This document shows positions 2,169-21,622 of a stretch of DNA of 35,672 nt, piece after piece. Where the stretch lies: positions 1 to 35,672 of the forward strand of contig JBAXWD010000001.1 of assembly GCA_037128645.1 (NCBI GenBank). Reading direction: 5' to 3'. This stretch comes from Candidatus Berkelbacteria bacterium (GTDB lineage Bacteria; Patescibacteriota; UBA1384; XYA2-FULL-43-10; CAINNR01). Position 1 is the stretch's first letter; each line of letters opens with the position of its first letter. A program made the translations under genes and the position numbers. The notes under the pieces are model-generated. The model saw only the letters and a program-made list of their open reading frames with translations, was not told the origin of the DNA and made no database searches.

Positions 2169-2378
2169 CTAATTGAAATCAAGCGATTTGATCTTTAACA
2201 CTTTCCCGATCGCTTGAAGTTTTTCGTATGAGGGATTAACTTCGCCCCGTTCGATCTGAGCGTAGTAGGTAATATTAAGAGAAGCCGATTTAGCAACTTC
2301 TGTCTGCTTCAGCCCGGCCTTCTCTCTGGCATTCCTAATTTTATTACCTAGATCAATAAAGATCTTTTCGTCTCTCAT
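2169..2378 (-). CDS. XRE/Cro-C1-type helix-turn-helix transcriptional regulator (69 aa)
   Basis: ORF-track protein. [33 protein letters not shown] is a typical XRE HTH pattern. It is divergent from the PLD gene across a 67-bp gap. Confidence 0.8.
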
Positions 2379-2445: not shown

Positions 2446-3168
2446 ATGATTTCACACGCTAAATCATTCAAGCAATTATTAAAAAGGAGAGATGACGCAA
2501 TTAAAGCCGAGAAAATATCAGAGTCGTCATCAATAGATTTGTACAACGAGCATACTTTTTACAAAGCACTTACCGCTGATATGCTGACTGCAAAAAGTGA
2601 GGTTATAATTTATAGTCCGTTTGTTTCGAAATTTAGAACAGATTTTCTCAAACCAACAATTGAGAAGTTAATCGACCGAAATATCGACATCTTTATCTTT
2701 ACCAGACCGATTGAAGAGTATGAAAATATCATACAACCACAAATAGAGTGCGCGCTAAAACGCCTTGAAGAGCTGGGTGTCTGCATTTTCTATCCAGGAA
2801 GGTATATTCATCAAAAGGTAGCAATTGTAGACAGAGAAGTCCTATGGGAGGGCAGTTTGAATATCCTCTCCCATCGAGCCAGCAATGAAATGATGAGAAG
2901 AACGGCTGACGGGGAATCTGCAACGCAGGTTATGTCTTATATCGGATTAAACGATCAGATTGCAGGTGCTTATAAGCTAAAATACGAAAAACTATATAAG
3001 GGTTTGGTAAATACTTCTAGGCAAAACTTCAAATTGAAAATGAAGATATTTTTACTAGGAATGACAATTCCGATAATTGTTTGGTTGATTATCGGCTTGG
3101 TAAATTTAAGACCAGTGCAAATATATACTTCGCTAGTAAATTCGATCATCGTATCGTTGCAACACTAA
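2446..3168 (+). CDS. PLD-superfamily (single HKD motif) Nuc-like nuclease/phosphodiesterase with a C-terminal transmembrane helix
   Basis: HKD signature HQKVAIVDREVLWEGSLNILS. Hydrophobic C-terminal segment MKIFLLGMTIPIIVWLIIGLV. AGGAGG lies 4 nt upstream of the ATG. Confidence 0.7.
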   Translation: MISHAKSFKQLLKRRDDAIKAEKISESSSIDLYNEHTFYKALTADMLTAKSEVIIYSPFVSKFRTDFLKPTIEKLIDRNIDIFIFTRPIEEYENIIQPQIECALKRLEELGVCIFYPGRYIHQKVAIVDREVLWEGSLNILSHRASNEMMRRTADGESATQVMSYIGLNDQIAGAYKLKYEKLYKGLVNTSRQNFKLKMKIFLLGMTIPIIVWLIIGLVNLRPVQIYTSLVNSIIVSLQH

Positions 3169-3335
3169 AACTCTTCCTCTTTCAACTTTTCAAATCTCAT
3201 TTTAGAGAAATACTTTTGACAGGCTTTATTGTTGCATCTTGCAAAGCAACTTTTTTCATCAGAAATCCGCGAGGATGAAATGATTCCCGTTCGTGCAACT
3301 ACTTCGCCACATTTATCACAAACTTTATATTTCAT
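3165..3335 (-). CDS. possible small zinc-ribbon-like protein (56 aa), below the ORF-track size cutoff
   Basis: Hand translation gives MKYKVCDKCGEVVARTGIISSSRISDEKSCFARCNNKACQKYFSKMRFEKLKEEEF, with a CxxC pair plus further Cys residues. It overlaps the PLD gene stop convergently by 4 nt. No clear SD. Confidence 0.3.
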   Translation of the reverse strand: MKYKVCDKCGEVVARTGIISSSRISDEKSCFARCNNKACQKYFSKMRFEKLKEEEF

Positions 3336-3369
3336 GACTATCTATGATTTTTCTAAGTTAATTCTTTCG

Positions 3370-4131
3370 CTATTCCCTCGAACAATTTATTTTTATTCCT
3401 AAATCTTTGCCGTTTAATGAAAATTCCGGAACAACAAACTCTATGCGAATCTTTCCCTCGGGCTCCCCGAAAAACATAGGCAATACGATTCCATCGGTGT
3501 ATTGGACCATGTGTTTCTTGGGCCATTTATCCATGTATTTTGTCCGGTAAATGACCATGAAAATATCATGGTGGATTAGGGGAAAAGTTATTATACCTAA
3601 AATTCCAGGAATATCTTCTGCTTCTAAGTCGTCGATGCAAAATGATAACTGCAAGTTTATGTTAAGGCCAACCCTAGGCAAGGCATAAGCCAAAATTACA
3701 GAAGGACGTAATGACTTGGTCGTATTCACTATAACATCGCTTTTTCTTGTGCCGGCTTCGGATTTTGAAGCGTTCTCAGGTTTTCTGGGAAATATGGTAA
3801 ATAAATGTCGTAAGCTAATATCTTTTTCAATTTTCTTTAGTAAGTGGTGCCCATTAATAACAAGCTGTTCACTATGATCATCGGAAGTAACTCGAGTTTG
3901 TCCAGAGGCATGGATACTTAGGTGGCCATTAGAATTCTGAACAATCTTAAATGGTTTGAGTTCATTTTTTTCTTCTTTAAAAGTGAGCCATTCAAATGCA
4001 GTAAATTCCAGTGACCCGAGATAAATACTTCCATCATTTTTATTTTGAGACAGTGAAAACAATTGCCAGATGCTCTCGTCGATGTCTTTAATGAAAACTC
4101 TGCATTGTTTATTGCCTTCCATCTCATTCAT
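3370..4131 (-). CDS. hypothetical protein (253 aa), no motif recognised
   Basis: Long ORF on the same strand as the upstream array, with GAGGGA about 9 nt upstream of the ATG. No recognisable domain by eye. Confidence 0.6.
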   Translation of the reverse strand: MNEMEGNKQCRVFIKDIDESIWQLFSLSQNKNDGSIYLGSLEFTAFEWLTFKEEKNELKPFKIVQNSNGHLSIHASGQTRVTSDDHSEQLVINGHHLLKKIEKDISLRHLFTIFPRKPENASKSEAGTRKSDVIVNTTKSLRPSVILAYALPRVGLNINLQLSFCIDDLEAEDIPGILGIITFPLIHHDIFMVIYRTKYMDKWPKKHMVQYTDGIVLPMFFGEPEGKIRIEFVVPEFSLNGKDLGIKINCSRE

Positions 4132-4405
4132 TTCGCTGATCCCTCGTTGATTTTTATTCCGTAAACAAGTTTCTTATCGCCAATTCCACCTCACTTGGGA
4201 AGCGTCCCCGAAATTTACTTCCAGGTCAAATAACTATTCATTATTACGGATAGTGTTTTTAAATCGTCTTCTAAAATTAAAATACGGGCGGTATTCATAT
4301 TAGTTAATCCTCTATGATTTTTATTGAGTTATACCTTATTGTCTAACAGCTACGAATAGTGAAGTGTCCCCAAAAAGTTTAGAAATGGTTTTTGAGTTTA
4401 CTTTT

Positions 4406-5047
4406 TTATTTTAAAGAATCAATTTTACAACTGATAGTGTAATTATCTCCTGTTAATTCTTTGATTGCGACTTCCAATAATTCTGGCGCTTTACAAAATA
4501 ACAATCTATCATAATGAAATTTATACTTCATTTTCAATATAATTTCTTTGCCGATAATATCAGCTTTACAATTTTGCAGGAGTAAAGTTAGCCGCGGCTC
4601 CATTTCTCCAACCTTTTTTACAGCGTCTTGCCATGCCTCTTCAGACAAGCTACTGACGCATTTACCTTCTTTAGGTTGTGTCATGTTGAGTTGTATATCT
4701 TGGGTTTTAATCCAGTTTTTCTGACGATCTTTCCATGACGAGAGAAGAAATTCACATCGCTTTGGATCATTAAAATCCTTTGCAGCTCGTGATAATGCCT
4801 CGTCGTCATTAACATAAAACCCAGTTACAACCACAGATTGCTCTTGATAAATTCTGACCATTCGCTTGTCTCCCAGCTTTTGGTGATGCTCTATTGCTAT
4901 ATGAAAAGCTTCGTATAAGATATCTTTTGGAAAAGGCAAAAATGATTCGGGGATCTTAGTGCTAAAAATATACATTAATATTCCTTCTGCGTACTCAACA
5001 TATTTTCCGTAAATTGGCAAAATCTTATCTACTTCTTCTAGCGTCAT
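4406..5047 (-). CDS. hypothetical protein (213 aa)
   Basis: ORF-track protein, 45 bp downstream of the HNH gene on the same strand. The C-terminal ~80 aa (WQDAVKKVGEMEPRLTLLLQNCKADIIGKEIILKMKYKFHYDRL...) loosely recalls the C-terminal region of DnaX-type proteins. This is a weak impression only. Confidence 0.6.
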   Translation of the reverse strand: MTLEEVDKILPIYGKYVEYAEGILMYIFSTKIPESFLPFPKDILYEAFHIAIEHHQKLGDKRMVRIYQEQSVVVTGFYVNDDEALSRAAKDFNDPKRCEFLLSSWKDRQKNWIKTQDIQLNMTQPKEGKCVSSLSEEAWQDAVKKVGEMEPRLTLLLQNCKADIIGKEIILKMKYKFHYDRLLFCKAPELLEVAIKELTGDNYTISCKIDSLK

Positions 5048-5091
5048 AATGTTCCCTTTCAGGTTATAAATCTATGCTCTAAGTTTAAGAT

Positions 5092-5634
5092 CTAAGTAAC
5101 CGATACTCTCTTGTTTCGGTTACAAGCGCCACAAAGTATTTGAAGATTTTCTGGTGCACTTGATCCCCCAACAGAAAAAGGAATAATATGGTCAAATTGT
5201 AATTCGGATTGTGATCCGCATTTTACACAGCGACCTTTATCTCTTTGCCAAACAAGTTGCTTTATATCGTCAGGTATCGCACCACGTTGTAATTTAGCCT
5301 GAATTTTCGGAGCAGCGGTTATGGTTTTGGCTCGATTAATTCGATCTTGTTGCAAGCGCTTTCGCGATAATATCAGAGCCTTAACAGATTCATGATCAAG
5401 ATCATCTGTATCTTTATAAAACTTGTTTTCAAACAGCCAATAGTTTTTATTGCCTATACAAAACTGGAAAGGTGTTTCATGTCTTTCTGCCAAAAATGAT
5501 GAATATTCTTCACGGGTTAGCCGGAAACTTCTAAAATCATGAATGGATTTTCCAACCACAAGACCAATATGCCCCTTCCTTGATAGAAAGTGCGGTGAAA
5601 AATAAATTGAAATGTTCTCGATTTGCTTGAGCAT
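5092..5634 (-). CDS. HNH endonuclease-domain protein (180 aa) with an uncharacterised N-terminal domain
   Basis: C-terminal HNH motif CVKCGSQSELQFDHIIPFSVGGSSAPENLQILCGACNRNK. Confidence 0.75.
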   Translation of the reverse strand: MLKQIENISIYFSPHFLSRKGHIGLVVGKSIHDFRSFRLTREEYSSFLAERHETPFQFCIGNKNYWLFENKFYKDTDDLDHESVKALILSRKRLQQDRINRAKTITAAPKIQAKLQRGAIPDDIKQLVWQRDKGRCVKCGSQSELQFDHIIPFSVGGSSAPENLQILCGACNRNKRVSVT

Positions 5635-5648
5635 ATTTTTTGAACTAT

Positions 5649-8600
5649 TTAATCGGCCTTAACAACTTCCTCTAGCCCCCAGAAAATACTGCCACCTTCA
5701 CGGATCAAATCGTTAATAAGGTCATAAACCTCAGATTTTATTTTTTGGTCGTTGGTATTATAGATGATCTGAAATGCCTCCAGCCATTCCTTATCAATAT
5801 GAAAAAACATACTACCGCGATCCGTACTCATTAAGCCATCGTACAGGTATAGTCGGGCAATTTTCAAGGTTTCAAGAGGGTCCGTTTCCGCAAATTCAAC
5901 GATCGAATTTGCAAGACCGAGTTCCCAGTGTATGACACCCTTTGTTTTTTCAAGTGTTCTCCTGACTCGCTCGGCAAGCCAAATTGGTTCAAACAATTTC
6001 TTTTCTAAATTTACCCATGTTCCAAACTCATCAAATATTTCCCTTTCGTCTTTATTTTTAAGTGTCCAATCCCAAAACTCGAGCAATTTGTCTTTTGTTT
6101 GAGGATTTTTTGCGATAAACTCATTTGCTTCTTTATTGTCCCCACTAATAAGAGACCTGCCTATAAAGCTAACAAACTTTGAAAGTTGCTTGGTATTACT
6201 TTTCGTTAAAAAATACTGGAATAATGGATGCTTAAAATTAAAATCATTATAATAAATGAAGGCGAGAGCGAGGTGCGTTGCGAGGCCTTCGTCGAGACTG
6301 ACGAAAGAATCTTGTTTCGAAGGAATACCCACCTGTTGGTCGATGGCACGATAATACAATTTTTGAAAATCTGGATCGAAAAATATTTTCTCATATAGAT
6401 TATTGGAAAGATACCCTTCCCATGCTGCTGTATAAAATTTATTTTTATCTTTATCGGTTGGAAAGATAATCGGGAGCAAACTATTAATCCACAGCTCATC
6501 TCTATAATGAAAAGTTGGAACATGGCGCCCAAACATGAACATTATTGCACGAGTATTCTCTTTACGTAAGATTTCTTCATATAGTATTTTACAATCGGGA
6601 GAAATCTTAATTTTGTCATTTTTATCAAACTTCTTCCCGTCCTGATAAACAAATAGTACAAAAACCTCGTAAGCTCTGCCCCTAACCGAGTTAATTGCAA
6701 TTTGAAAAGGATCGCTTATTCTAGCTTCAGAGGCCCCTGGCGATTGTATCGTCATTTTTGCCGTTTTGGGTTCCTCGTCTTCTGGAATTGGATCGGGGTA
6801 TTCTAAAAGGTACCTTAGAATTAGCAGAATAGAATCGCGATATTTTGATAAGTCGAGAGTAGGATCGCCGCCTGTGTTGTCAAGTAACAATTCCTTAACA
6901 ACATCGGACATGGCGGAATTGACAGCATTCCAGCTCGCAAGCCAAGTGTTATGAGGATCAAATTTACCTTTATTGCGACTGGCTTCTTCGGTCTGATGCA
7001 ATTCAATGATATTATCGAAAAGCTTAATCAACCCGTCCCATTTAACCTTGGGATCAGTCGAGCGGTTATTTTTTATAGCCTCTTGAATACCCTGTAAAAA
7101 CGAGTAGGTATAATGTGAATTTAATTTAGCCTGGTCAAAAAATAGATTGGCATGATCTACATAATCCTGCAAACGATTAGCTATATCCATTTTTATTTGA
7201 TTGCCAAGACCCTCAGCATTTCGCCTACTTAAGAAATCGTCATTTTTGTATTTTTCACTCAGAGATTCTGGAGACCATTCATTTTGTAATTTTCCAGCGA
7301 TCTCTTCAATTGGTAGAGTATTTAATTCTTTTTGGTCAACTGGGGATTGGTCTTTAACAAATCCGCCCACAATCGAGCTTATCCTCGGTCTGGGGTCAAA
7401 TTTTACGTCTAACTTAAAACCAGCGTCTAACACAGACTTTTTAGTGTCTTCGCCTAAATGGCTTACGATAATCGACATAATTTCCGAGCCACGTACTCGC
7501 CACCACTTATTATTTTTATCGTCTTTTTCAACTGGATGGTTAAAGTACTCTATAGCTTTTTCTGCATAATCCCTTCTATCTGCTTCAGAGAGTGATCCAA
7601 AGCACTTATCCAATAGTTTTTCATATTCAGTCCCAGCAATAATATCGCTATAGTGTTCTGCATCGAACAGTCGAAACAGCGCGTCTTTTATAATCTCCTT
7701 ATAAACGTTAGAAGCTAAGCTCAGGATAAATAAACGCATTCGCCATATTAGCTGACTATCAGGTAGAGGATGAATATAGTTTTCGTAAATCTTCAATATT
7801 TTTTTAGGATTGTTTTTGTTGTTCACAATAAGCCTACTAGCTAAAGCTTTTATTACAGCGGCTAGTTCGTACACACTTTCGCGAGAAGATGAGTGTTTCC
7901 TGCCCGGTGTGGCTGCGAAAAAATCTAAGTCAAATAAGTAGAAAGAATCTTCTCTTTTGAATGTTGAGTCTTTGGGTGCTTCACTTCCCAAATAAACAAT
8001 TTGTTCCAAGGTTTTGATTGTCAGTATAAACGCTTTCTCTACCATCTCATTACTAATAGATAATAGAGATTCGAATATATCTGTGTAAGCCAGGTCATTA
8101 AAATAGAAGGGACTTTCAAAGCCAGCTTGCTTTCCGAGTTGCTGGATTTCTTCTTTTGTTTTCACTGACAGTATTGTTTCAGCAAGAGTTAAAATACTTT
8201 TTTCGTTTTTTGCTTCAGCAAGTATTCTTAATATTTTTTGGTATTCAAATTCTTGGTTATTAAATAATTTCATAAGTAAGACCCAGTTTTCTCTTCGGAT
8301 TTTTTGAACTACTTTGCCTAACTCACTTGCCGGCAAAGAACCACAAATATGTAAAAATTGGTCTATTACTTCAGGATTAAAGGTCCCCATAGAAATCGGA
8401 ACAGCTAGGATTATCACAGCAACCTTTTCTGGGACTTTTATAACCATCCTAACCAGATAATTTAATTCTGGCATCCGATAGTTATATTGTGTAGGATCTC
8501 CAGCTTTCTTTTTAATATCATCCAGAAAATCGTTTTTCCAGAGCCAATCTAGCCAGAGTTCATTTGCATTGGAAAAGAAGTAATTCTTCGCATCAGCATT

Positions 8601-8696
8601 TGACTTAAGGAGAAATTTTAATTCAGCCAGCTTCCCATCCGAGGGCCTGCTGGCTAACAATAAGTCGATAGAATTGTGTAGTTTGATTTGGTTCAT
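5649..8696 (-). CDS. large hypothetical protein (1015 aa); no P-loop or nuclease motif recognised
   Basis: Uninterrupted 3 kb ORF, 14 bp upstream of the HNH gene and 6 bp downstream of the TM-protein gene. Rich in W/F/Y/L. I found no GxxxxGK[ST], HKD, HNH or PD-ExK pattern. Confidence 0.75.
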   Translation of the reverse strand: MNQIKLHNSIDLLLASRPSDGKLAELKFLLKSNADAKNYFFSNANELWLDWLWKNDFLDDIKKKAGDPTQYNYRMPELNYLVRMVIKVPEKVAVIILAVPISMGTFNPEVIDQFLHICGSLPASELGKVVQKIRRENWVLLMKLFNNQEFEYQKILRILAEAKNEKSILTLAETILSVKTKEEIQQLGKQAGFESPFYFNDLAYTDIFESLLSISNEMVEKAFILTIKTLEQIVYLGSEAPKDSTFKREDSFYLFDLDFFAATPGRKHSSSRESVYELAAVIKALASRLIVNNKNNPKKILKIYENYIHPLPDSQLIWRMRLFILSLASNVYKEIIKDALFRLFDAEHYSDIIAGTEYEKLLDKCFGSLSEADRRDYAEKAIEYFNHPVEKDDKNNKWWRVRGSEIMSIIVSHLGEDTKKSVLDAGFKLDVKFDPRPRISSIVGGFVKDQSPVDQKELNTLPIEEIAGKLQNEWSPESLSEKYKNDDFLSRRNAEGLGNQIKMDIANRLQDYVDHANLFFDQAKLNSHYTYSFLQGIQEAIKNNRSTDPKVKWDGLIKLFDNIIELHQTEEASRNKGKFDPHNTWLASWNAVNSAMSDVVKELLLDNTGGDPTLDLSKYRDSILLILRYLLEYPDPIPEDEEPKTAKMTIQSPGASEARISDPFQIAINSVRGRAYEVFVLFVYQDGKKFDKNDKIKISPDCKILYEEILRKENTRAIMFMFGRHVPTFHYRDELWINSLLPIIFPTDKDKNKFYTAAWEGYLSNNLYEKIFFDPDFQKLYYRAIDQQVGIPSKQDSFVSLDEGLATHLALAFIYYNDFNFKHPLFQYFLTKSNTKQLSKFVSFIGRSLISGDNKEANEFIAKNPQTKDKLLEFWDWTLKNKDEREIFDEFGTWVNLEKKLFEPIWLAERVRRTLEKTKGVIHWELGLANSIVEFAETDPLETLKIARLYLYDGLMSTDRGSMFFHIDKEWLEAFQIIYNTNDQKIKSEVYDLINDLIREGGSIFWGLEEVVKAD

Positions 8697-8702
8697 TATT
8701 CC

Positions 8703-9374
8703 CTATTTTGCATAAAAACTATACATCTGCCTCTGAATTTTTTTGATTGACTCGTCAAAATCATCAGATCCATATGCGTCTAGATTCCATGATGTTAATT
8801 TGGTAATCTCTTGCTTTATCCCGTCAGCTGTTTCATCCTCACTAATTTCGGACATCAGGTCAGCTATTTGGCTGTAGATTCTTATATATAGTGTCGCTGA
8901 ATTCTGATGTTGACCCTTGACTCTATAGTCTTCCGCTCTAGCATAATCATCAATATAGTTAAATGATCTACCATTTTTTTCAAAAAGTTTTTTGGTCTCT
9001 GCACAGATGAATTCTACATCTTGAGAAATTGTAAATGCGTCTGGATTGCTCCCGGTTTGGGTTAGAGCATCTTTTTCATCTGCAGTCCGGGGTGATATAT
9101 TGAATGTTGTGTTTTGACTATCAGTTATCACTGCCTGGATTCCGGCACCTTGCTGAGTGTTTTCGCCAGTATTAACAGCATGAACAGCTGAGCCACCATT
9201 TGCTGAGTTAGCTTGGTTGGCAGAGCCCTTTTGGCTGACCCTCTGTTTGAACTTCTTGACAACGCTCAGTTTATTTTCAATAAAAATACCAGCTCCACCT
9301 CCAATCAATAGGCCCAGCAAACCTATTGCAGCATCTAGTATTAATTTGTTGAGATTGTAATCTTCGGTTGTCAT
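8703..9374 (-). CDS. hypothetical membrane-anchored protein (223 aa): N-terminal TM helix, low-complexity linker, C-terminal domain of unknown function
   Basis: TM segment LILDAAIGLLGLLIGGGAGIFI, Q/N/S/G-rich linker, GGAG about 12 nt upstream of the ATG. Confidence 0.65.
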   Translation of the reverse strand: MTTEDYNLNKLILDAAIGLLGLLIGGGAGIFIENKLSVVKKFKQRVSQKGSANQANSANGGSAVHAVNTGENTQQGAGIQAVITDSQNTTFNISPRTADEKDALTQTGSNPDAFTISQDVEFICAETKKLFEKNGRSFNYIDDYARAEDYRVKGQHQNSATLYIRIYSQIADLMSEISEDETADGIKQEITKLTSWNLDAYGSDDFDESIKKIQRQMYSFYAK

Positions 9375-9470
9375 TTTATGTTTTTTCTCCAGACAAGAAT
9401 ACTATATACAGTTTAAAACCTAGAGGGCACTGATCATTTTCCTGGATTGTTTTCTCTATTTAATATTGTT

Positions 9471-12400
9471 TCAGGCGCTGCTTGCCTTGCTTACCCTATT
9501 CCAAACTAAACGGCAAACAGCTCTGTAAACATCCTTCCGTTCTTCTGAAGTTAGCTCCAGGGCGTCGAAGACTACTTTATCTAGTTTGGCTCGATCTGGG
9601 AGCGGACATGGTTCCTGTTCCTCGATTGGGATCTTCAGTTGGGGGTCAATTCCACACTCCAAAAATATTGATTCTTTATCCTTTTTCAGCAATTCCAGAC
9701 CAACAATATTTAATTCCATGACTTGCAAACGCTTAACCTCGTATGTCTGAATCTTTAATAATCCACCACCAAATCCAACTCGACCGGTATTAAGTTGAAG
9801 CAAGTATGATACAGATGAATTAAGGAATAATTCAATATGTTTTTCTGTATGGATTTCTTGAAAATTATCACTTACGAAACATTCACCTACATATGAAGTT
9901 CCTACTTCGCTTATCAAGTAGTTAAAATTAATTTTTGCGGGTACCCGGTCACCCAAACTATACCAGTCTCTTCTTCCTGAAACACTCGGGACATCTTTCC
10001 AAAAAACCCCGTCTTTTGTTTTCTGTCGCTCGCCCCACTCAATATATTCTAAAGCCTTTGTACCAGCCAGGGCTTCTTTGCGTTTATTACAAATAAAGAG
10101 CTTGAAGCTGAGTTTTTTAGCATCGATCACAATACTTTTGCATTCACGAGGACTCTTGATTACTGGCTTCAAAAATTCATTTTCGATACCCCAACGACGA
10201 CTTTGTTCCTCATTAATATAAAAGAACTCATTCACACCTGTAGTAAAGCCTCGCCTTACAACAGCAACATCAGACAATTTGACAAGTTTATCTTTCCCTT
10301 TATTTAAGATGGTGAATAGAATATCGGGAGCGCGCAAGAATTTACTTCCCCATTTTTCTCCAATATATTTCCCGACTTTTAGTTTTTCCTGGGTTTCATC
10401 TTCAAATTCAATACCAGATTCTTCTAATTTGTCATTTGTAATCGGATATACCCTAAACATTTCATTGGAAGTTATTTCTTGAGCCTTTTCAATGGCAAGT
10501 AAATTTTCAGTATATATTACTTCCTCGAATGGTTTTTTAAATGCTATAAATTTTACGACATGGTCATCGCTAACACTTCTTTTTCTGTCAGCCAAAGGGG
10601 CGTGTATCACTGAGATAATTGTATTAACATCAGCAGCTTCGAAGCTTCTCTTTGCATGGTTATCTATTATAAGCTCGACTGGGGCACGTTCCAGTAAAAA
10701 CTTCTGAAGCCAAACTCCGTAGCCAACATCAAGCCAAGAGTTAGAGCAAATGAAAGTGTGTATTCCTTGAGGGTTGAGCAGACGCAGTCCACGAATATAA
10801 AAATAAGTATAGAGATCTGATTGGCCATTAATTTTAGTCTTTTGGGAAAAATCGTTTGGGAAATCTAGCTTAACCATTTCGGCAAGCAATCCCTTGTATT
10901 CTTTTTTATCCTTTATTCTACCCGTAGGGTCAGCAATATCTTCTTGTCTAACGTATGGAGGATTTCCGATAATGATGTCAAAGCCTCCTTTTTCAGTGAA
11001 GACCTCAGCGAATTCTATACACCAGACCAAAGGTTTATCTTTCCGCAAAACACTCTTCTGCTCCGAGAGTTCCAATATCTCGTTTTCCAATTGATCGATT
11101 TTTTCTTTGTTTAATTCGAGTGAAGTTTGTTGAGGAACTTCATCACCACCAAATAACGATGTTACTCGGAGAGTTTTCTGGCCCTTGAGACTCTTTAATT
11201 CATTTTGTTTTTCTTGTATCTCATTAGATAGAATTTCCTCATAAATCCTAAGCTCCTTTTGTCTAGGAACATCATAGTTTGCAAAAATAGTTTTATTATT
11301 AAAAAAATCAATTTTAAATGTTTTCAACTCAGTTATCTTCTTTTTTAATGAGCTCGTAAGTGCCTGGTTATAGCCAATAACTGGGAATAGCTTTGACCCA
11401 ACACGTTGAACTAAAGAATCGCCTTGCCGAACCTTAAAGTCAAGACTGGGGAGAATAGGTTTTTGTGACATTCTTAATTCTTCGGGTGCTTCAATAAACA
11501 AAGAGAGCCAAAGCCTTAACTGACAGATCCAAACTGCCCATTCCTTAACTTCAACACCATAAAGAGAGTTGCCAATAATTTGCTTTTTTCGGTCAAACGA
11601 ATCGCGACGGACAAGATCGAAACGTTCCCTTAAATTGTTTTCAACTTCATCTAGAACTTGCATCATTCCAACCAAGAAAGCACCTGAGCCAACTGCGGGG
11701 TCGCAAATAGCTAGGTTCTCGAGTAAATCCAAAGTTTCTATAGCTTCAACCTTAGAAAAGCTACCTACTTTTTGCTCATTATCCTTCTCACTTTCACGGA
11801 AGAATAGTTCGTAGAGGTTCTCTGATCTGATGTTGGAAGTTTGGTTCTTTTGCAACCATTTAACGAGACTTAACCTACACATATAGTCAACTTCGGTACG
11901 GGGTGTGTAAACGGCACCATCAGCCTTATTTACGATACGTTCAAAGATTATCCCCAAGAATTCCGGATTGAGCTGGAGATCTGAATCATCTATTGAGCTT
12001 TCCTCAATCGTGAAACTATGCGAAAACAGAAAATCAAAAAATTCGCCGATTTCCTGGTCTGGAATATACCAGCCATTTCCGTCATAGCCATCCTTCTCTC
12101 TAAAAAGGCCACCGTTTAGATATGGGGCAAGCTGTAGCGCTGAATTAATTTCTGCTGGTAAGTGTTGCCGAGGAAAGAACTTATTGTTCAGTGCTTCAAA
12201 GAAAAGGAGAGAGAGCCAATCTTCGTAAAATCTATTTTCAACTTTAGATTTTAGATAGCTGCTAAATAATTTTTGAATGAAATTCTGGTCGTCACCGAGC
12301 CAATTCCTTTTTTGAATGAATCCGAGAAAGATTGTTCGGATTGAGAATAAGAGAACGAAATCTCTTGCTTTTTCTTCGGTTATGCTATTCTTGACCGCCG

Positions 12401-12953
12401 CAACTTTAACAAGCTTGTTATATATATTAAAAAAATCTTTGTAGAATATCTCTGTAACTGGACCGACAGCAAATGCATCTTTGACCGAGGAGAATGAGGA
12501 AAAATTAGAACTACTCATCCTCTCTAAAAAGGTTTTATTAGTAAACTGTCTACTTACGAAATATGTAAATCGACGAAAATTAGACCATTGCCGACGCGTC
12601 CCGACCGCCTCAGGATAAATTAGTGAAAAACGAAAATTTCCAGATGAATCGAAAAACACGAATATGCCAGCTCCGAAATCATACTTTTTCAACAATGTCT
12701 TTGCGAACTCGTACTGGATTCTCTTTGAGCTTCTTTCGTCAAGTTCTCGTCCTACAAATGATTCTATAATTACGAGTTTTTCCCATGCTTTGAAATTAAT
12801 CTCTCCAATTTTTCTGGTTTGGGTTATTAATTGGCCATGGATGTCAGGTAAGGTTGCCATAGATCTTGTAAAGAGCGAAGATTTAGCTTCAAAAAAACTA
12901 GCTAATTTATCTGCATCATATTGAGCAATTAGTTGATCAAGAAATTCTTTCAT
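9471..12953 (-). CDS. N6-adenine DNA methyltransferase, large MmeI/PglX/YeeA-like (Eco57I-family) architecture, 1160 aa
   Basis: AdoMet motif I DPAVGSGAFLVGM lies upstream of catalytic motif IV IIIGNPPYV (gamma-class order). Long N-terminal region with no obvious PD-ExK triad. Large C-terminal specificity-like region. The start codon overlaps the helicase stop (ATGA at 12950-12953). Confidence 0.9.
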   Translation of the reverse strand: MKEFLDQLIAQYDADKLASFFEAKSSLFTRSMATLPDIHGQLITQTRKIGEINFKAWEKLVIIESFVGRELDERSSKRIQYEFAKTLLKKYDFGAGIFVFFDSSGNFRFSLIYPEAVGTRRQWSNFRRFTYFVSRQFTNKTFLERMSSSNFSSFSSVKDAFAVGPVTEIFYKDFFNIYNKLVKVAAVKNSITEEKARDFVLLFSIRTIFLGFIQKRNWLGDDQNFIQKLFSSYLKSKVENRFYEDWLSLLFFEALNNKFFPRQHLPAEINSALQLAPYLNGGLFREKDGYDGNGWYIPDQEIGEFFDFLFSHSFTIEESSIDDSDLQLNPEFLGIIFERIVNKADGAVYTPRTEVDYMCRLSLVKWLQKNQTSNIRSENLYELFFRESEKDNEQKVGSFSKVEAIETLDLLENLAICDPAVGSGAFLVGMMQVLDEVENNLRERFDLVRRDSFDRKKQIIGNSLYGVEVKEWAVWICQLRLWLSLFIEAPEELRMSQKPILPSLDFKVRQGDSLVQRVGSKLFPVIGYNQALTSSLKKKITELKTFKIDFFNNKTIFANYDVPRQKELRIYEEILSNEIQEKQNELKSLKGQKTLRVTSLFGGDEVPQQTSLELNKEKIDQLENEILELSEQKSVLRKDKPLVWCIEFAEVFTEKGGFDIIIGNPPYVRQEDIADPTGRIKDKKEYKGLLAEMVKLDFPNDFSQKTKINGQSDLYTYFYIRGLRLLNPQGIHTFICSNSWLDVGYGVWLQKFLLERAPVELIIDNHAKRSFEAADVNTIISVIHAPLADRKRSVSDDHVVKFIAFKKPFEEVIYTENLLAIEKAQEITSNEMFRVYPITNDKLEESGIEFEDETQEKLKVGKYIGEKWGSKFLRAPDILFTILNKGKDKLVKLSDVAVVRRGFTTGVNEFFYINEEQSRRWGIENEFLKPVIKSPRECKSIVIDAKKLSFKLFICNKRKEALAGTKALEYIEWGERQKTKDGVFWKDVPSVSGRRDWYSLGDRVPAKINFNYLISEVGTSYVGECFVSDNFQEIHTEKHIELFLNSSVSYLLQLNTGRVGFGGGLLKIQTYEVKRLQVMELNIVGLELLKKDKESIFLECGIDPQLKIPIEEQEPCPLPDRAKLDKVVFDALELTSEERKDVYRAVCRLVWNRVSKASSA

Positions 12954-15900
12954 TCTGAACCCTTTTGATTCTCAATTGAAATGATTACATCTTGAGTTAG
13001 CTTATTTGCTCGCTCTTTAATAGAATCGAGATAGTTGTCACCGCCAAGAAGTTTTTTTAAGTCCTTGATATCTTTAATTGACTCTTCAGATTTTGCATCA
13101 GAGCTAAAATTAAGTTTTTTAATTGTTCTTTGAGTATATTCTGATAAAGTTTTGTATTCGTACATGTCTTCAAGAAGGCTTTCAATGAATTTTTTATAAG
13201 GGTTGAGCTGATCGTCTTGAAGCTCTAGTAAATATTTGAGATTGTTTTTCGCCTGAACTTCAACACTTTGTTCGCTAGTTGCTCTTCTCAAATTCTCTTT
13301 GTAGTCGCTGATTTTCGTGTACGATTTCCAAAAATCAACACTAAGATCCAACCCGGTTGTTTCTGGTTCACATTTGATCAATTCATAACATTGGTCAACC
13401 CCACATTCATTAACAGGAGAGGTGAGATCTGATTGGTCTGTTGTACGGATGAAAAATCCCAAGCCTTTTCTTATAACCGTAACAAGAATATTTTTCTCAT
13501 ACTCTTTTGCAACTTTTACTCTATTTGGAAGCTTGGCTATTTTTTCTACTATATTTGGATTCTGTTTGCATAGTTCCATATACTCACGTCTGATTTTTGT
13601 TTGAAAACTTTCTTGTTCCAAGTTTTCTGGATTCTCATTGACTCGGTCATATAGACTAGCAGCGTGTGGGGTCTCGTCCGCATCGAATATTTTAGCATCT
13701 TCGCCCAAAACATTGTGAATCATAAACATTTTCTCTGCAGCTATTTGGCGGCTTTTAATGATATCCGCACCTTTCAAAGTCGGGAAGAAGTTGTGAATAT
13801 ATAAATATTCAAATACTTTTTTGCCTATTCTGTTTATTCTACCCACCCTCTGAATCACTCTGGTCGGATTCCAAGGTATATCATAATTGATGACAGATCC
13901 AGCCCTGTTTAGATTAAAACCTTCAGACATTTTGTCTGTTCCTAGTAGAATCTGATAGGTGTCTTCCTGCTCTTTGTAGTCTGCATCAAAGTTTTTTAAG
14001 ACATCATCAATCTTTGAATTCAGGTCATTTGTTACAGAAAGTACTTTCCCAGGAAATAAATTTTCAAGGATTGGTTTTAAGTAGTTTGCAGTATCAAGAT
14101 ACTCGGTGAAAATTATAACTTTTCTGTTCTTAACGTTATCAATACCGCCAGATATAATTTTGTTTATAGATTCTTCTAACTTTTCAATTTTCGGATCGTT
14201 TGCGACAAGATCTAGATCTTGTATCTTTTGCTTAAGTTCTGCAAATATATTGAGATCGGACTGCATGTCTTCTAAAAATTTATCTTTTTGCTTGAATTCG
14301 TCGATTTTATATCTCTGATATGATTTGGGATAATTTCCTTTTTCTAAGACTTCGGTATATTCGTCAAGTTTTTTCTGAACCTCTTCAATATCATCCTGCG
14401 ATATTTTTTCAATAAGTTTTCTGTCGAGAATAAACTCGCCAGTTTTATTGACGAAGTCAATGCAAAGTTTGGTTACCCTTTCAAAATTATTTATACTCTT
14501 TTCGAACGCGCCAAAAGAGCTCTCAAAACGTTTTACAAGAAGCCTTTTCATAAAATCATACAAGTTTTTCTGAATCAAAGACTGTCTATTACCTTCCTGG
14601 CCCAAAGCTTCAACGTCATCGGTATCAATCCCTTCTTGATAACGAAATGGCTGATAAATAGCACCTTTGAATTTACCGTTTTCACTAAAATAATCTTCAA
14701 TAACTTCATCATAGAATTTAGATTGTGCTTCGGTAAGCTCATAAAATTCTTCAACTGGAGGATCAGCTATCTCCGACAATTCTGTTACTTCTTTAGAGTA
14801 AACCGGGTCATTTTTTAGATCAAGCCTATTTCTTCGTATAGTAACTGGCTCAATCACAGATCGGATTCTTTCGGCTAAACTCTTTGCCCTCCCAAGAACA
14901 TCTTTGTCAACTTTCTCAAAAGAAATTTCTCTTTCGCCGAAAAGCGAACGATACTTTGCTTCCGCCTGTTTTCTTTTGTTTTCATCTGAAGACCGGATAT
15001 TTTTTTTAATATATGACAAGTCTTTGAATACTTTATTGTAATGAGAAAATTCAACGTCAAGATCATCGTTTAAAGTAAGCTCCGATTTACCAGAAATAAT
15101 AAATAGCTTAAGCAGTGAATATATATCAGCCGGAGAGTTATTAAATGGCGTAGCTGTCATTAAAATGACCACTTTATCTTTGCATATACCTCTTAATAAT
15201 TCATGATCTCTAGTATCTTGATTCCTAAATCTATGGGCTTCATCAATAATTATTACATCAACATCATTGTTTTGGACGTAATCAAATGCGTCTTCCAAAT
15301 TCCCTGATGACTTTATCTCCCAAGAATACAGTCCAAAATCTTTGCGATACTTTTTCCAACCAGACTTGTTGTTTGTGTCTCCTATTAGACCAGGAGGGCA
15401 AAGAATTAGGCCTTTTTTGTTTATCATTCTGCCAACCAAAGAACCAACTACACTTTTGCCAAGACCAACAACATCACAGATAATAGCACCGTTATATCGT
15501 TCAATCATGGCAAGAGCCTGAGTAACAGCGTCAACCTGATATTGGTAAGGTTTGTAACCAGCATCTTCTAAAATCAATTTTAGACTTTGCTCGGCTTTTT
15601 GTTGCTTGGTATATTCAACATAATTTCTTAACACTAAAGCAAATGCTTCGAACGGAGTAATTTTTGCTACAATGCTTTCCTGCTCTAGTGTTTTGATAAG
15701 TCTTTCTTTTATAACATCATTTTCTGTAATCTTCACCGAGCTTTCCCACAGTTCATCAAAAAAATCTTCAGCTTCTTTCGAATTGCTATCACTAACCTCT
15801 AAATTAAATTCTCCTTGAGAGACAAGACCAGCCCTGGTTAGGTTACTACTTCCGGTAATAAAAATAGATTCTCGGATTATTTTTGAGTCTTCATTCATTT

Positions 15901-16312
15901 TGAATATATACAACTTTGAATGATTTGGCTCTTTTGTTTTTCTAATTATTAAGCGGCCTTCTTTTATTGAATCTATGAAATATCTAATTTGTTCATAGTA
16001 CGCTTCTGAATCTAGTTCTTTGTGAGAAGTGGCTGTTTTTACAGAACCAATGTAGTTATTGGCTCTTTCGGAATCGTTTTTGGCTTGTAATCCAAGTTCT
16101 ACCAGTTGATCTGTTAACTGATCAACATTAAGGCCAACGAGTACATTCAACTTTATACTAGGGTTAAGTTTGAGGCATTCAAAAAGTTCAGCAATGCCAG
16201 AAAAGTAAAAAAAACCAACTAGAAATTTAAGCTCCTGGCTCTTAGAAGTAAGTTCGGAAATTCTATCGCGTAGCTTTCTTTCCTTGTTGTTGATGATATT
16301 TGCATTTGCCAT
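12950..16312 (-). CDS. fusion of an N-terminal PLD (HKD) nuclease domain and an SNF2-family helicase, 1120 aa
   Basis: HKD motif NHSKLYIF...ITGSSNLTRAGL. SNF2 motifs DVVGLGKS (I), IIIDEAHRFRN (II), LMTATPFNNSPADIYSLLKLF (III) and LLGTDKMSEGFNLNRAGSVINYDIPWNPTRVIQRVGRINRIG (V-VI). AAGGAA SD. Confidence 0.9.
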   Translation of the reverse strand: MANANIINNKERKLRDRISELTSKSQELKFLVGFFYFSGIAELFECLKLNPSIKLNVLVGLNVDQLTDQLVELGLQAKNDSERANNYIGSVKTATSHKELDSEAYYEQIRYFIDSIKEGRLIIRKTKEPNHSKLYIFKMNEDSKIIRESIFITGSSNLTRAGLVSQGEFNLEVSDSNSKEAEDFFDELWESSVKITENDVIKERLIKTLEQESIVAKITPFEAFALVLRNYVEYTKQQKAEQSLKLILEDAGYKPYQYQVDAVTQALAMIERYNGAIICDVVGLGKSVVGSLVGRMINKKGLILCPPGLIGDTNNKSGWKKYRKDFGLYSWEIKSSGNLEDAFDYVQNNDVDVIIIDEAHRFRNQDTRDHELLRGICKDKVVILMTATPFNNSPADIYSLLKLFIISGKSELTLNDDLDVEFSHYNKVFKDLSYIKKNIRSSDENKRKQAEAKYRSLFGEREISFEKVDKDVLGRAKSLAERIRSVIEPVTIRRNRLDLKNDPVYSKEVTELSEIADPPVEEFYELTEAQSKFYDEVIEDYFSENGKFKGAIYQPFRYQEGIDTDDVEALGQEGNRQSLIQKNLYDFMKRLLVKRFESSFGAFEKSINNFERVTKLCIDFVNKTGEFILDRKLIEKISQDDIEEVQKKLDEYTEVLEKGNYPKSYQRYKIDEFKQKDKFLEDMQSDLNIFAELKQKIQDLDLVANDPKIEKLEESINKIISGGIDNVKNRKVIIFTEYLDTANYLKPILENLFPGKVLSVTNDLNSKIDDVLKNFDADYKEQEDTYQILLGTDKMSEGFNLNRAGSVINYDIPWNPTRVIQRVGRINRIGKKVFEYLYIHNFFPTLKGADIIKSRQIAAEKMFMIHNVLGEDAKIFDADETPHAASLYDRVNENPENLEQESFQTKIRREYMELCKQNPNIVEKIAKLPNRVKVAKEYEKNILVTVIRKGLGFFIRTTDQSDLTSPVNECGVDQCYELIKCEPETTGLDLSVDFWKSYTKISDYKENLRRATSEQSVEVQAKNNLKYLLELQDDQLNPYKKFIESLLEDMYEYKTLSEYTQRTIKKLNFSSDAKSEESIKDIKDLKKLLGGDNYLDSIKERANKLTQDVIISIENQKGSE

Positions 16313-16575
16313 CTTTGTTCCTTGTCTGTTTACGATTTTGTTGCTTTCAGCGTACCACTTTACAGGGTAAAAATAAAGATTTACCGCTGTGTTTAATTAA
16401 GCTCCTTCTTTACTTTTTTGTCCAGTCCACCAATTTATGGCTGTTATGAAAAATCAGATTGAATCCTGACTGGATCCTTGCTTTTTCAGTTTAGATTTGC
16501 TAGATTGCGCTTGTACGCAAACAAGCTGTAAATTTCGTCAATTGCTTGATTAAAAGTGGAGGGGAGGGAGAATAT

Positions 16576-19631: not shown

Positions 19632-20405
19632 ATGACCAACTCACCAAACATAACTAAAAAACAACAACAGATTCTCCACCTACTATTTCAATTCAGATTT
19701 CTAAACCGTCCCCAAATTCAACAATTTCTAAAACACAAAGATCGTAGAGCAACAAACGATTTATTAAGTGATCTAGCAAACAAAGAATATATCGGTCGCA
19801 TTTATATTGAAACATTTCCAGAAAAGACCAAACCGGCAGTCTACTATCTGATTAAAGCAGGAGTACACTTTCTGAAATCAAAAGGATTTGACCAAAAGCA
19901 ATTGCATAAATTGTATTATGAAAACAAGCGATCGGAGAATTTTATCAGCCAATCATTACTGCTGGTCGATGTTTATCTCGATCTTTCAAACCGCAAAGAC
20001 GACAAGGCAAAGTTTACAATGGCAATTGCCAGCGATTACCCGAGTCACAGTTTAGGCGAATTCCTCGGGGATCTTTTGCCCAGCGCTTACATCGAACAAG
20101 AAAGTAACGAAGACACGGAGCATTATTTTTTGGAAATTCTTCCCGATGTACCAATTGAGAGACTGAGGCCAAGAATAAGAAAATACCTAGATTTTTACGA
20201 CAGCAGCGAATGGGAAGGTGAAACCAGCGAAGATTTTCCCACAGTTATTATGATTTGCCCGGATGTTAGTACCTTAATTTATGTTAAGCGATATTTGAAA
20301 AGAAAGTTTATCGAAATGGACGGGGAATCCTTGATTATTCACTTAACTACAATTGATAAATTTAAGGAGCATGGTCTAACCGGCGACATCTGGGAGAAGG
20401 TTTGA
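19632..20405 (+). CDS. replication-relaxation (Replic_Relax) family protein, 257 aa
   Basis: The N-terminal winged-helix-like pattern ITKKQQQILHLLFQFRFLNRPQIQQFLKHKDRRATNDLLSDLANKEYIGRIY matches my recollection of that family. It lies immediately downstream of a coupling ATPase. Confidence 0.55.
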   Translation: MTNSPNITKKQQQILHLLFQFRFLNRPQIQQFLKHKDRRATNDLLSDLANKEYIGRIYIETFPEKTKPAVYYLIKAGVHFLKSKGFDQKQLHKLYYENKRSENFISQSLLLVDVYLDLSNRKDDKAKFTMAIASDYPSHSLGEFLGDLLPSAYIEQESNEDTEHYFLEILPDVPIERLRPRIRKYLDFYDSSEWEGETSEDFPTVIMICPDVSTLIYVKRYLKRKFIEMDGESLIIHLTTIDKFKEHGLTGDIWEKV

Positions 20406-20431: not shown

Positions 20432-21082
20432 ATGGAAATTGAAATCGAAGAATATCTGGCACTATCGGCTCCATACACAAAACACTGGATTCAAAAAATT
20501 GTTGACGCATGTTCTGAGCGGATAGATTTTAAGGATGCTAAAATCGGAATCTATTTGGTTTCTAAATCAGAAGAGTTGGAGGACTTAAACGGCGCCAGAG
20601 GTTACTGCCCCTCCGGTTCGCTTATTGAAATATCTGTCGACTTACTTAATCCTCATTTGGATTTTGACTACATTAAACTAACTATAGCTCATGAGCTTTA
20701 TCACCTGGCACGACGGCAATCCGGTATCAAGACTGGCGAAGACACGGTTTTGGAATGCCTGATAAGCGAAGGGCTGGCTGATAGATTTGTCTACGAAACC
20801 TATGGGCTACCTCCCGTCTGGGTTTCAAAAATTGATAAAACAGAGGCAATTAAACTATTAAAGAAAATATCTCCTATTTTAGACAAAAAAATTGACGATG
20901 AAATTTATAGCGATTGGTTTTCAAGAGGTTCTGAAAAACTCAAAATTAGAAAATGGTCGGGCTACGATCTCGGTTATGCATTGGTTTTGCAAATACTAAA
21001 GAAAGACAAAAAGTTAAGTTCGATCTCATTCCTTGATGTTCCTGCTAAGGAAATCGCCGAAATTACCGTGTTGTTACAGTAA
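20432..21082 (+). CDS. predicted Zn-dependent metalloprotease (HExxH; DUF2268-like), 216 aa
   Basis: TIAHELYHLARR contains HExxH. GAAAGG SD. Confidence 0.55.
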   Translation: MEIEIEEYLALSAPYTKHWIQKIVDACSERIDFKDAKIGIYLVSKSEELEDLNGARGYCPSGSLIEISVDLLNPHLDFDYIKLTIAHELYHLARRQSGIKTGEDTVLECLISEGLADRFVYETYGLPPVWVSKIDKTEAIKLLKKISPILDKKIDDEIYSDWFSRGSEKLKIRKWSGYDLGYALVLQILKKDKKLSSISFLDVPAKEIAEITVLLQ

Positions 21083-21193
21083 ATTACTGCCATTGACTAG
21101 AGAAAGCTCTGTTTACTTGGTTGACAACCAATGATGATATTCGGGAGGATAGAATAGACGCTGAGATCTGGGGATAATCTTTGTTCTCTAGCT

Positions 21194-21232
21194 AAATGGA
21201 AACCTACAAACTGTTAGTGGTTTCCATTTTTT
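21194..21232 (+). terminator. Rho-independent terminator after the metalloprotease gene
   Basis: An 11-bp stem aaatggaaacc/ggtttccattt with a 14-nt loop, running into a T tract. Confidence 0.6.
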
Positions 21233-21257
21233 GTTGACTTTTATTTTATAATTTGCT

Positions 21258-21622
21258 AGTTTGAAATTAGTCGCAGATGTAGCTCGAGCACTGGAAGGGA
21301 GAAGCCTTTGGGCTGACAGTGTCGTTTGACACGCGAAGCTGATTGATCAGCAACCTTAGCCACCTGCTATTAAGCGCCGCCTTCATGGGGTTGACCAAAA
21401 TAGTAGACCTAATTTGGACCCTAGAGTCCAAGATCAATCAGTTGTTGCACAGCGTGCAAGTTGGTGTTTTCACACGCGTGTGGGAAAAAACCAGAGACGC
21501 ATCTGCTGCGCTGAGCTCCTCGCATAGGGGGTCGGCGCACGCCATCATTTAAGGCGACTGCTCAGGCGGTTGCTATCCTATCCGAGAGCTGATCAACGCA
21601 CCGATCAGCTCTCTTTACTTTT
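21258..21622 (+). ncRNA. candidate structured non-coding transcript (~360 nt), family not recognised
   Basis: G+C-rich, ORF-poor segment between an upstream terminator and its own terminator. Several local hairpins: gtgtc-gtt-gacac, gctgat-tg-atcagc, cacacgcgtgtg. The only ORF (21343-21552) starts at TTG with no SD. Confidence 0.3.
21584..21622 (+). terminator. Rho-independent terminator (plus strand)
   Basis: An 11-bp perfect stem gagagctgatc/gatcagctctc, loop aacgcacc, then tttactttt. Confidence 0.6.

Follow-up and report, generated by a model that had tools for sequence, protein, structure and literature searches.

Genes embedded in or appended to restriction-modification (R-M), BREX, DISARM and Hma loci include many that turned out to be defence systems in their own right (Payne et al. 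2024, bioRxiv 10.1101/2024.01.29.577857). Avs proteins of the STAND class, another close point of comparison, combine a large alpha-solenoid, by which a phage protein is bound, with a central NTPase and a swappable N-terminal effector, which can be a nuclease, a protease, a transmembrane module or another type. PrrC/EcoprrI is the type of R-M-linked abortive infection. Here we analyse a 35,672-nucleotide stretch of DNA from a Candidatus Berkelbacteria bacterium (positions 1 to 35,672 of the forward strand of contig JBAXWD010000001.1, assembly GCA_037128645.1), hereafter the window. On a conjugative island, behind an R-M-like helicase/methyltransferase pair, it carries two co-transcribed genes, p223 and p1015, which very probably make up a conserved unit (5649–9374, minus strand) that excludes the three genes downstream of it, HNH180, p213 and p253. 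We read this unit as a cassette appended to an R-M operon, in which a sensor or scaffold is paired with a swappable effector, and as a candidate for accessory defence; taken whole, that reading stands evenly poised between right and wrong.

Seven co-directional genes on the minus strand span positions 16312 to 3370. In order of transcription, with protein lengths in amino acids (aa), they are:

12950–16312, minus strand: PLD (HKD) nuclease joined to an SNF2 helicase, 1120 aa (Helicase_C, SNF2-rel_dom, RE_NgoFVII, PLDc_2)
9471–12953, minus strand: Eco57I/MmeI-type N6-adenine DNA methyltransferase, 1160 aa (PF07669, E=3.5e-32, with MmeI_Mtase and N6_Mtase)
8703–9374, minus strand: p223, 223 aa; N-terminal transmembrane helix, low-complexity linker and a helical-looking C-terminal domain of ~110 aa
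5649–8696, minus strand: p1015, 1015 aa; predicted all-alpha HEAT/ARM-like solenoid
5092–5634, minus strand: HNH180, 180 aa; C-terminal HNH domain (PF01844)
4406–5047, minus strand: p213, 213 aa; orphan
3370–4131, minus strand: p253, 253 aa; orphan, 274 bp beyond p213

The helicase and methyltransferase genes overlap by 4 bp, and the intergenic gaps from the methyltransferase onward are 96, 6, 14, 44 and 274 bp. An earlier, sequence-only reading of this DNA had reported five genes following a methyltransferase-helicase pair. All five open reading frames (ORFs) and the pair are present, and its first two spacings (6 and 14 bp) are exact, whereas the two it gave as 45 and 275 bp measure 44 and 274 bp. 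In PADLOC, the methyltransferase matches a type IIG REase-MTase (E=1e-45) and DrmMI (1e-24), and the helicase matches the 'HKD+Snf2' model C3a139 (E=3e-34) and DrmD (9e-34). The methyltransferase is the modification and specificity half of an R-M-like pair and the PLD-SNF2 helicase its restriction/translocase half; together they look like a split type ISP/IIG-like R-M enzyme. A promoter and terminator scan of 3000–16700 yielded counts no higher than those of shuffled controls and was uninformative on operon structure.

The larger protein of the unit, p1015, has no match in Pfam, NCBIfam, PHROGs or PADLOC 2.0, no sequence match in the PDB by single-sequence or 30-sequence-profile search, and no Walker A, HKD, CxxC or DEAD motif. 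A conserved D662...D686-G-K688 string was considered as a PD-(D/E)xK site and rejected because it sits inside a predicted helix (662–688), not a beta strand, of an all-alpha protein. An AlphaFold2 model built from a 30-sequence alignment (mean pLDDT 87.6) consists only of helices, about 56 of them, arranged in repeat-like pairs. Searching the PDB with this model using Foldseek returned alpha-solenoids only: the sensor part of Avs4 came first (8dgf, E=1.4e-6, TMq 0.34), followed by karyopherins, CAND1, SF3B1, FANCI and mTOR, all with TM-scores of 0.34 or less. Judging from the predicted structure, we take the fold class of p1015, an alpha-solenoid, as established and specific kinship with Avs4 as not established. 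The sequence-only description of p1015 as non-enzymatic-looking agrees with this picture. Among viral models, Foldseek found only generic repeat proteins of giant viruses, and a tblastn search of a phage collection gave no match.

Homologues of p1015 are numerous. At least 174 are full length, at 35–56% identity, and the best 120 listed align over 97–100% of p1015 at 39–56% identity. An exhaustive profile search covering 1.84 billion cluster representatives gave 557 clusters (50% identity) at E≤1e-30, a number that rises to 1774 at E≤1e-10 and to 2640 at E≤1e-3. Nearly all genome matches are metagenome-assembled genomes, in which Patescibacteria of many classes predominate; other members come from Caldilineaceae, Nitrospirales, Gammaproteobacteria, Omnitrophota, Verrucomicrobia, Aminicenantia and one Methanosarcinales archaeon. 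This spread is patchy across bacterial phyla and archaea, resembles horizontal gene transfer and often involves mobile elements. We did not find the family described in the literature on HEAT-repeat proteins linked to R-M or defence islands, or in that on defence systems of candidate phyla radiation (CPR) bacteria. The p1015 proteins are a large, previously unannotated family of alpha-solenoids of ~1000 aa that almost always work with a small N-terminal module.

Two distant relatives lie on plasmids and are possible experimental entry points in cultivable organisms. HFX_RS15310 of Haloferax mediterranei plasmid pHM100 (L085:5590-10041; L numbers denote the loci compared) is a 1483-aa protein annotated as hypothetical, with a weak N-terminal STAND-NTPase match (E=9e-4) and a C-terminal solenoid-like region (E=1e-7, 24% of the query). 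Its architecture offers thin evidence, from these sequence matches, that may be compatible with a sensor role for the solenoid. The other, a hypothetical protein of 789 aa (L084:8122-10491), lies between insertion sequence elements on a Legionella pneumophila conjugative plasmid.

To define the partners of the solenoid, we collected 80 genome loci with 10-kb flanks, together with the contigs of the closest metagenomic homologues, and clustered all ORFs; the partner census covers the 82 non-redundant loci that have upstream sequence. The sole strongly conserved neighbour of the solenoid gene is the same-strand gene directly upstream. In 74 of the 82 loci, one of three unrelated N-modules either directly precedes the solenoid or is fused to it. 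The majority module, N-ext, is a separate protein of ~170–200 aa in 41 loci and fused in 21, where the solenoid protein reaches 1150–1210 aa (62 loci in total). The p223 family (cluster c8, alignment A2) occupies the position in eight loci, the window included, and a CHAT-domain protease of ~350 aa in four (Pfam E=2.9e-6 and 1.8e-10). The remaining eight loci have another partner or none. Gaps between module and solenoid are mostly −4 to +40 bp; in six of the eight c8 loci the two genes share a 4-bp ATGA-type overlap, and in the window they lie 6 bp apart.

Fusion ties the two parts together functionally. Thirty of the 120 listed homologues are 1140–1260 aa long and have the N-ext domain ahead of the solenoid in the same chain, which is Rosetta-stone evidence that N-module and solenoid act together. 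That p223 or a CHAT protease replaces N-ext at the same position shows module swapping. Solenoid and N-module form a conserved two-part unit, and the majority module also occurs fused.

In the window the N-module is p223. Its predicted N-terminal transmembrane helix corresponds to a hydrophobic segment at residues 12–30 (Kyte-Doolittle mean 1.92), as the sequence-only reading had noted, and is followed by a Q/N/S/G-rich linker. Searches of Pfam, NCBIfam, PHROGs and PADLOC gave no match to p223, and the only homologue retrieved was the identical protein in other assemblies. We asked whether p223 is a diverged copy of N-ext; neither BLASTP nor hhalign (probability 14%) supported this. We consider p223 a putative effector or anchor partner of p1015.

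N-ext is modelled as a six-helix bundle (pLDDT 80.8), and its alignment contains invariant Arg and His residues, R73 and H121 in the modelled segment (P0038). The Pfam family pP_pnuc_1 ('predicted pPIWI-associating nuclease') matches N-ext at E≤1 in 11 of 29 members, a sequence-level hint of a nuclease role. HEPN identity was also considered for N-ext: Foldseek gave no significant matches, with HEPN toxins recurring only at E values of 0.3–1.3, and we rejected this identity as unproven. An extra small protein with an N-terminal transmembrane helix is encoded just upstream of N-ext in L081, L083, L004, L020, L043 and L014, and in L078 the helix lies within the N-ext protein itself. Membrane association is therefore a recurrent theme at N-ext loci.

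Compared with Avs, the p1015 family shares the large alpha-solenoid and the swappable N-terminal module but differs in two respects. The central NTPase is absent from p1015 and its relatives of ~1000 aa, which show no Walker A motif and no STAND or NACHT match (the model of p1015 is entirely helical repeats), and the effector is often a separate polypeptide. By analogy, the solenoid unit would work most like an Avs-type sensor-effector from which the NTPase has been removed.

Upstream of the unit, the genes on its strand are dominated by R-M components. Scanning 88 co-directional upstream proteins identified ResIII (13), Eco57I/N6_Mtase (11), MmeI_Mtase (10), N6_N4_Mtase (7) and TaqI_C (7) domains, with PLD (5), D12 methylase (3), C5 methylase (2), DpnII (2) and Vsr (2) as rarer classes. 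We also scored methyltransferases by the amino-methyltransferase motif [DNS]PP[YFWH] in proteins of at least 200 aa within 6 kb of the unit. Motif-bearing proteins lie upstream in 35 of 66 loci, on the same strand in 29, as against 8 of 65 loci downstream (upstream bias, Fisher p=7e-7). The window belongs to the same-strand class, its methyltransferase gene ending 96 bp upstream of the unit. Homologues of this methyltransferase (55–59% identity) precede the solenoid genes of L046, L077 and L009. Among the closest relatives the R-M genes vary in kind. L081, with a solenoid 55% identical to p1015, reads HsdR-HsdM-HsdS, a 235-aa transmembrane protein, N-ext and solenoid; L083 has a window-type PLD-SNF2 helicase and methyltransferase, a 233-aa transmembrane protein, a fused N-ext-solenoid and a MauJ-like gene. 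In L086 the order is an HNH protein, an NmeDI-like endonuclease, a CHAT protein and the solenoid, and in L087 an NmeDI-like endonuclease, an N4/N6 methylase, a 383-aa protein, N-ext and the solenoid. The unit sits at the 3' end of many R-M operon types (I, II, III and IIG-like). Because the R-M type differs even among the closest relatives, the solenoid unit is an R-M operon appendage tied to no single R-M chemistry.

This placement resembles that of the embedded defence genes described by Payne et al., which share co-directional operons with R-M genes. The solenoid cassette differs in lying at the operon's 3' end rather than between the R-M genes and in having no ABC ATPase or GmrSD-type enzyme.

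An alternative is that the whole block (helicase, methyltransferase, p223, p1015 and perhaps HNH180) works as a single multi-subunit R-M-like system comparable to DISARM, BREX or Hma, with the solenoid as a structural or regulatory subunit of a restriction complex rather than an autonomous cassette. The genes are co-directional and tightly spaced. The same helicase and methyltransferase pair precedes the solenoid in L009, L046, L077 and L083 and, more distantly, in L052, L019, L065 and L067, and the solenoid gene overlaps the methyltransferase gene in L052 (29 bp), L065 (17 bp) and L019 (11 bp). The pair also matches the DrmD, DrmMI and HmaA models and resembles DrmD with DrmMI or HmaA with HmaB, that is, a nuclease-fused SNF2 helicase with a large N6-adenine methyltransferase. 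The defining partners of these systems, however, are missing from the window, and every NCBIfam score of the pair falls far short of the family cut-off. For class 1 DISARM, no protein of 3370–16312 matches DrmB (DUF1998), and the sole DrmA match is a secondary one of the PLD-SNF2 helicase (E=1e-20 versus 9e-34 for DrmD), which itself scores 142.7 against an NCBIfam DrmD cut-off of 610; a 240-aa PLD protein at 2446–3168 weakly resembles DrmC. Hma consists of a helicase, a methylase and a DUF499/BrxC-like ATPase (HmaC). The window holds no DUF499 ATPase, and p223, p1015, HNH180, p213 and p253 lack any ATPase domain or Walker A motif. For BREX, the methyltransferase matches PglX weakly (56.3 bits against an NCBIfam cut-off of 500), with no match to PglZ or BrxC. 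Moreover, the unit trails unrelated R-M types, including type I HsdRMS (L081), NmeDI-like type II (L086, L087), a ResIII and N6_N4 combination of type III-like character (L061, L062, L066) and DpnII/D12, and 31 of 66 loci have no methyltransferase-motif protein within 6 kb upstream. We consider a single multi-subunit system unlikely and favour the appended cassette.

The cassette travels on an island. From ~2.1 to 28.9 kb, the window is an integrated conjugative-type island in the Candidatus Berkelbacteria genome, with the following features:

2169–2378, minus strand: HTH_3/HTH_31 regulator, divergent from the PLD gene
2446–3168, plus strand: 240-aa PLD protein with a hydrophobic C-terminal tail; weak PADLOC matches to the PLD domains of MkoC and DrmC
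16546–19506: type IV coupling protein
19632–20405: Replic_Relax protein
27262–28845, plus strand: large serine recombinase
28788–28864, minus strand: tRNA-Ala(GGC), Rfam 65.7 bits

DUF2268 and DUF3768 proteins are also encoded. The last ~58 bp of the recombinase ORF overlap the tRNA-Ala gene on the opposite strand, an arrangement suggesting that the 3' end of the tRNA gene was the integration site of the island and is restored by it. Housekeeping genes (NUDIX, POR, acetate kinase (ackA) and iPGM) begin on the right flank at 29020. The left flank is visible in L095, a longer contig of the same element, where a leuS-like gene lies just past the pair formed by the helix-turn-helix (HTH) regulator and the PLD protein. 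L081 and L083 are conjugative elements like that of the window, encoding a type IV secretion system pilin, PrgI/TraC-like proteins, a type IV coupling protein, Replic_Relax and DUF3768, and they share the HTH and PLD pair at 45–52% identity. The 240-aa PLD protein is kept beside the R-M and solenoid cargo in L081, L083 and L017 (45–52% identity); it may be an extra nuclease component or a cargo gene controlled by the regulator. Conjugative elements of CPR bacteria are little documented.

Such a context raises a second alternative, in which the cassette serves the mobile element through establishment, exclusion, addiction or anti-defence for conjugative elements or prophages, and its proximity to R-M genes reflects shared cargo regions. 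Conjugative elements carry the unit both in the window and in L081 and L083, its two closest relatives; of 80 loci, 20 have serine recombinases near the solenoid and 15 have ParB-fused orphan methyltransferases; and distant homologues reside on Legionella conjugative plasmids and a Haloferax plasmid. Mere co-residence, however, would not be expected to yield the strong directional bias we observed, with the unit behind R-M genes, on their strand and often overlapping them. Many loci lie in megabase chromosomal contigs (Caldilineaceae, Nitrospirales), where the gene clusters that recur within 10 kb include no mobility genes. The swapping of protease, membrane and Arg-His modules is likewise typical of immune effectors. 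We judge an element-serving role distinctly unlikely next to accessory defence by the cassette.

Two further features of the island stand apart from the cassette. A reverse transcriptase (RT) is split by an apparent frameshift into two overlapping plus-strand ORFs (25281–25952 and 25943–26431); its best PADLOC matches are generic RT classes and defence-associated ones such as UG17 and Drt2/3a, and an Rfam scan of the window detected no group II intron RNA. What remains may be a decayed gene of the retron or defence-associated RT (DRT) kind. Separately, the block at 21000–25000 has a G+C content of 0.44–0.52, compared with 0.35–0.40 elsewhere in the island, and holds ORFs with no family match (for example, 23352–24317, 321 aa) together with the DUF3768 gene. 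This block may be a secondary insertion from another source.

We then examined the genes that follow the solenoid. HNH180 has a clear HNH domain at residues 136–175 (PF01844, E=1.8e-11), with D148, H149, N163, N172 and four Cys invariant in the alignment (a DH...N core and two CxxC pairs). Its N-terminal ~105 aa have no annotation; this domain is conserved (invariant P55, W66 and R91) and matches no family or PDB entry, in line with the sequence-only description of an HNH nuclease with an N-terminal domain of no known family. Family members align full length over 180–190 aa at 38–74% identity. The NCBI record starts at an internal Met and gives 155 aa, yet the correct length is 180 aa, because 28 full-length homologues conserve the upstream start (ML..VEN...). 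A PDB profile search matched the HNH of Cas9, 4h9d, McrA (6ghc, E=3.5e-6) and IscB, and the JGI annotation labels several HNH180 homologues McrA. HNH180 shares the HNH catalytic core with McrA- and IscB-type proteins, whereas its N-terminal region matches no known reader or DNA-binding domain, and no RuvC or RNA-guide parts accompany it. It also matches PtuB of Septu, but via the HNH core only (E=6e-4 to 5e-3), and there is no PtuA-like ATPase.

The genomic distribution of HNH180 separates it from the solenoid. In L090, a locus that lacks the solenoid, a homologue with 74% identity comes after a type I R-M operon and a YgjP-like gene, and a MauJ-like gene comes next; in L092-L094, a homologue with 61% identity stands alone on its own strand between ruv/polyprenyl synthase genes and AAA-ATPase genes. 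The family occurs downstream of the solenoid in none of 86 other solenoid-homologue loci, and tblastn of HNH180, p213 and p253 against the 80 genome loci returned a single distant HNH domain, which in L054 lies upstream of the unit. We therefore read HNH180 as a single-gene cassette of its own, outside the conserved unit. Going by sequence resemblance, it could plausibly be a restriction enzyme of the McrA kind or else a selfish HNH gene, in the variable slot at the tail of R-M operons.

That slot changes from locus to locus. It holds a MauJ-like gene in L083, an opposite-strand gene for a 562-aa protein in L081 and genes for proteins of 491, 330 and 364 aa in L017, and the region between the solenoid and the conserved PLD gene carries differing genes in these three loci. 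The 63 co-directional downstream proteins, drawn from fewer than 40 other loci, include nucleases (Mrr 3, SNase 2, PD-(D/E)XK 2, NERD 1, HNH 1), methyltransferases, a TOTE primase, trypsin-like proteases and metabolic enzymes, and no gene downstream of the solenoid is conserved among the loci compared. MauJ-family proteins (PF17419, ~265 aa) lie after the solenoid in L083 (L083:13609-14406) and after the HNH180 homologue in L090 (L090:7547-8338); the L083 copy contains a HEPN-like R-x4-H string (FRDAFAH). The MauJ-family gene looks like another interchangeable single-gene cassette in R-M operon tails.

Lastly, the orphans p213 and p253 have no homologues in related loci (89 were searched for p213) or in a plasmid collection. 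In Pfam, NCBIfam, PHROGs and PADLOC, p213 has only two matches, both sub-threshold and both through its C-terminal 75 residues: the C-terminal region of DnaX (gamma/tau; NCBIfam, E=2e-4) and the PolC N-terminal domain II (Pfam, E=2e-3). They probably reflect chance or a shared small helical domain. None of the four libraries matches p253, which is probably transcribed as a separate unit. Beyond it lies one more co-directional ORF, which the sequence-only reading did not mention:

3165–3335, minus strand: Cys-rich small ORF, 56 aa, beginning 34 bp after p253

Its cysteines (C6, C9, C30, C34 and C39) possibly form a zinc ribbon, and it is also gene-called in L095. We regard HNH180, p213 and p253 as cargo, separate from the unit, in a slot of the island whose content varies.

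The proposal that p223 (membrane sensor or anchor), p1015 (giant adaptor) and HNH180 (effector) together make a three-gene defence system, to which p213 and p253 might also belong, is very improbable: the 6- and 14-bp gaps point to co-transcription, the catalytic and zinc ligands of the HNH domain are all conserved, and nucleases of several folds appear among the 63 downstream genes elsewhere, but p213 and p253 have no homologue at the 80 genome loci, HNH180 homologues stand alone or behind R-M operons that have no solenoid, and the downstream slot is different in each close relative. That proposal came from the sequence-only reading, which took the first three genes to act together; the tight p223 and p1015 pair is conserved and HNH180 is not in the unit. 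Its test of co-occurrence across genomes turned up the pairing of solenoid and N-module, whereas HNH180 was never found beside a solenoid elsewhere, and p213 and p253 dropped out as module members. Its broader suggestion of a sensor/effector defence system agrees with the genomic context, with the difference that the variable, effector-like module is p223, encoded upstream of the solenoid and at other loci replaced by a module that can be fused to the solenoid's N-terminus, and not HNH180. What it called an accessory module matching no named system is likely a two-gene p223-p1015 cassette rather than a trio or a five-gene block. The annotation should be corrected accordingly: the unit is 5649–9374, not 5092–9374, and HNH180 is a separate candidate single-gene restriction enzyme.

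Several observations weigh against reading p223 and p1015 as a self-contained defence cassette. The PADLOC 2.0 models, which include 145 embedded candidates, match neither p223, p1015, N-ext nor the CHAT partner. The likeness of p1015 to Avs4 is generic (TM-score 0.34), and eukaryotic karyopherins score nearly as well. The 31 loci with no methyltransferase-motif protein close upstream bear on R-M linkage as a whole, and mobile elements carry many of the solenoid loci, which leaves room for a role that benefits the element. At the level of the modules, the pP_pnuc_1 matches of N-ext are partial (profile positions ~10–40 of 133), with one just reaching the gathering score, and p223, whose C-terminal domain is of an uncharacterised type, may be an anchor rather than an effector. 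HNH180 begins only 14 bp after p1015 and is surely co-transcribed with it, which makes local functional cooperation possible.

Set beside these points, the R-M operon context, the mobile elements, the patchy spread and the swappable modules together fit a sensor/effector defence cassette. We infer a defence function, a sensor role for the solenoid, an effector role for p223 and the nature of the trigger. In this scheme the solenoid, as a sensor or scaffold that binds a ligand or a protein, would keep the N-module inactive. The trigger would be a signal tied either to DNA that invades the cell or to the adjacent R-M system having failed, and on its appearance the solenoid would free or activate the N-module. 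In the window this module would be p223, a predicted single-pass membrane protein that might compromise the membrane, providing an abortive-infection-type back-up to restriction. A bolder version, which we regard as doubtful, is that solenoid and N-module form a type-agnostic guard that senses the state of whichever R-M enzyme is co-transcribed with it, or binds the anti-restriction proteins and DNA mimics with which phages and plasmids counter R-M, and that unleashes the effector once restriction is inhibited or bypassed. The effector would be a membrane protein in the window, the Arg-His helical module, a putative nuclease, in most relatives and a CHAT protease in a few. If true, it would reveal a widespread, NTPase-free second layer of immunity concentrated in CPR bacteria that are largely devoid of well-known systems.

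Should the cassette prove to be defensive, it would add a large family, comprising hundreds to thousands of clusters, that Pfam, NCBIfam, PHROGs and PADLOC do not see. The family is concentrated in Patescibacteria/CPR, whose defence inventory is poorly known because discovery pipelines lean on RefSeq genomes of cultured organisms. That the unit consistently follows R-M operons of every class would make a general back-up or guard wiring to restriction testable, and the three unrelated N-modules found on one solenoid would constitute a natural experiment in effector swapping that proceeds without an NTPase switch.

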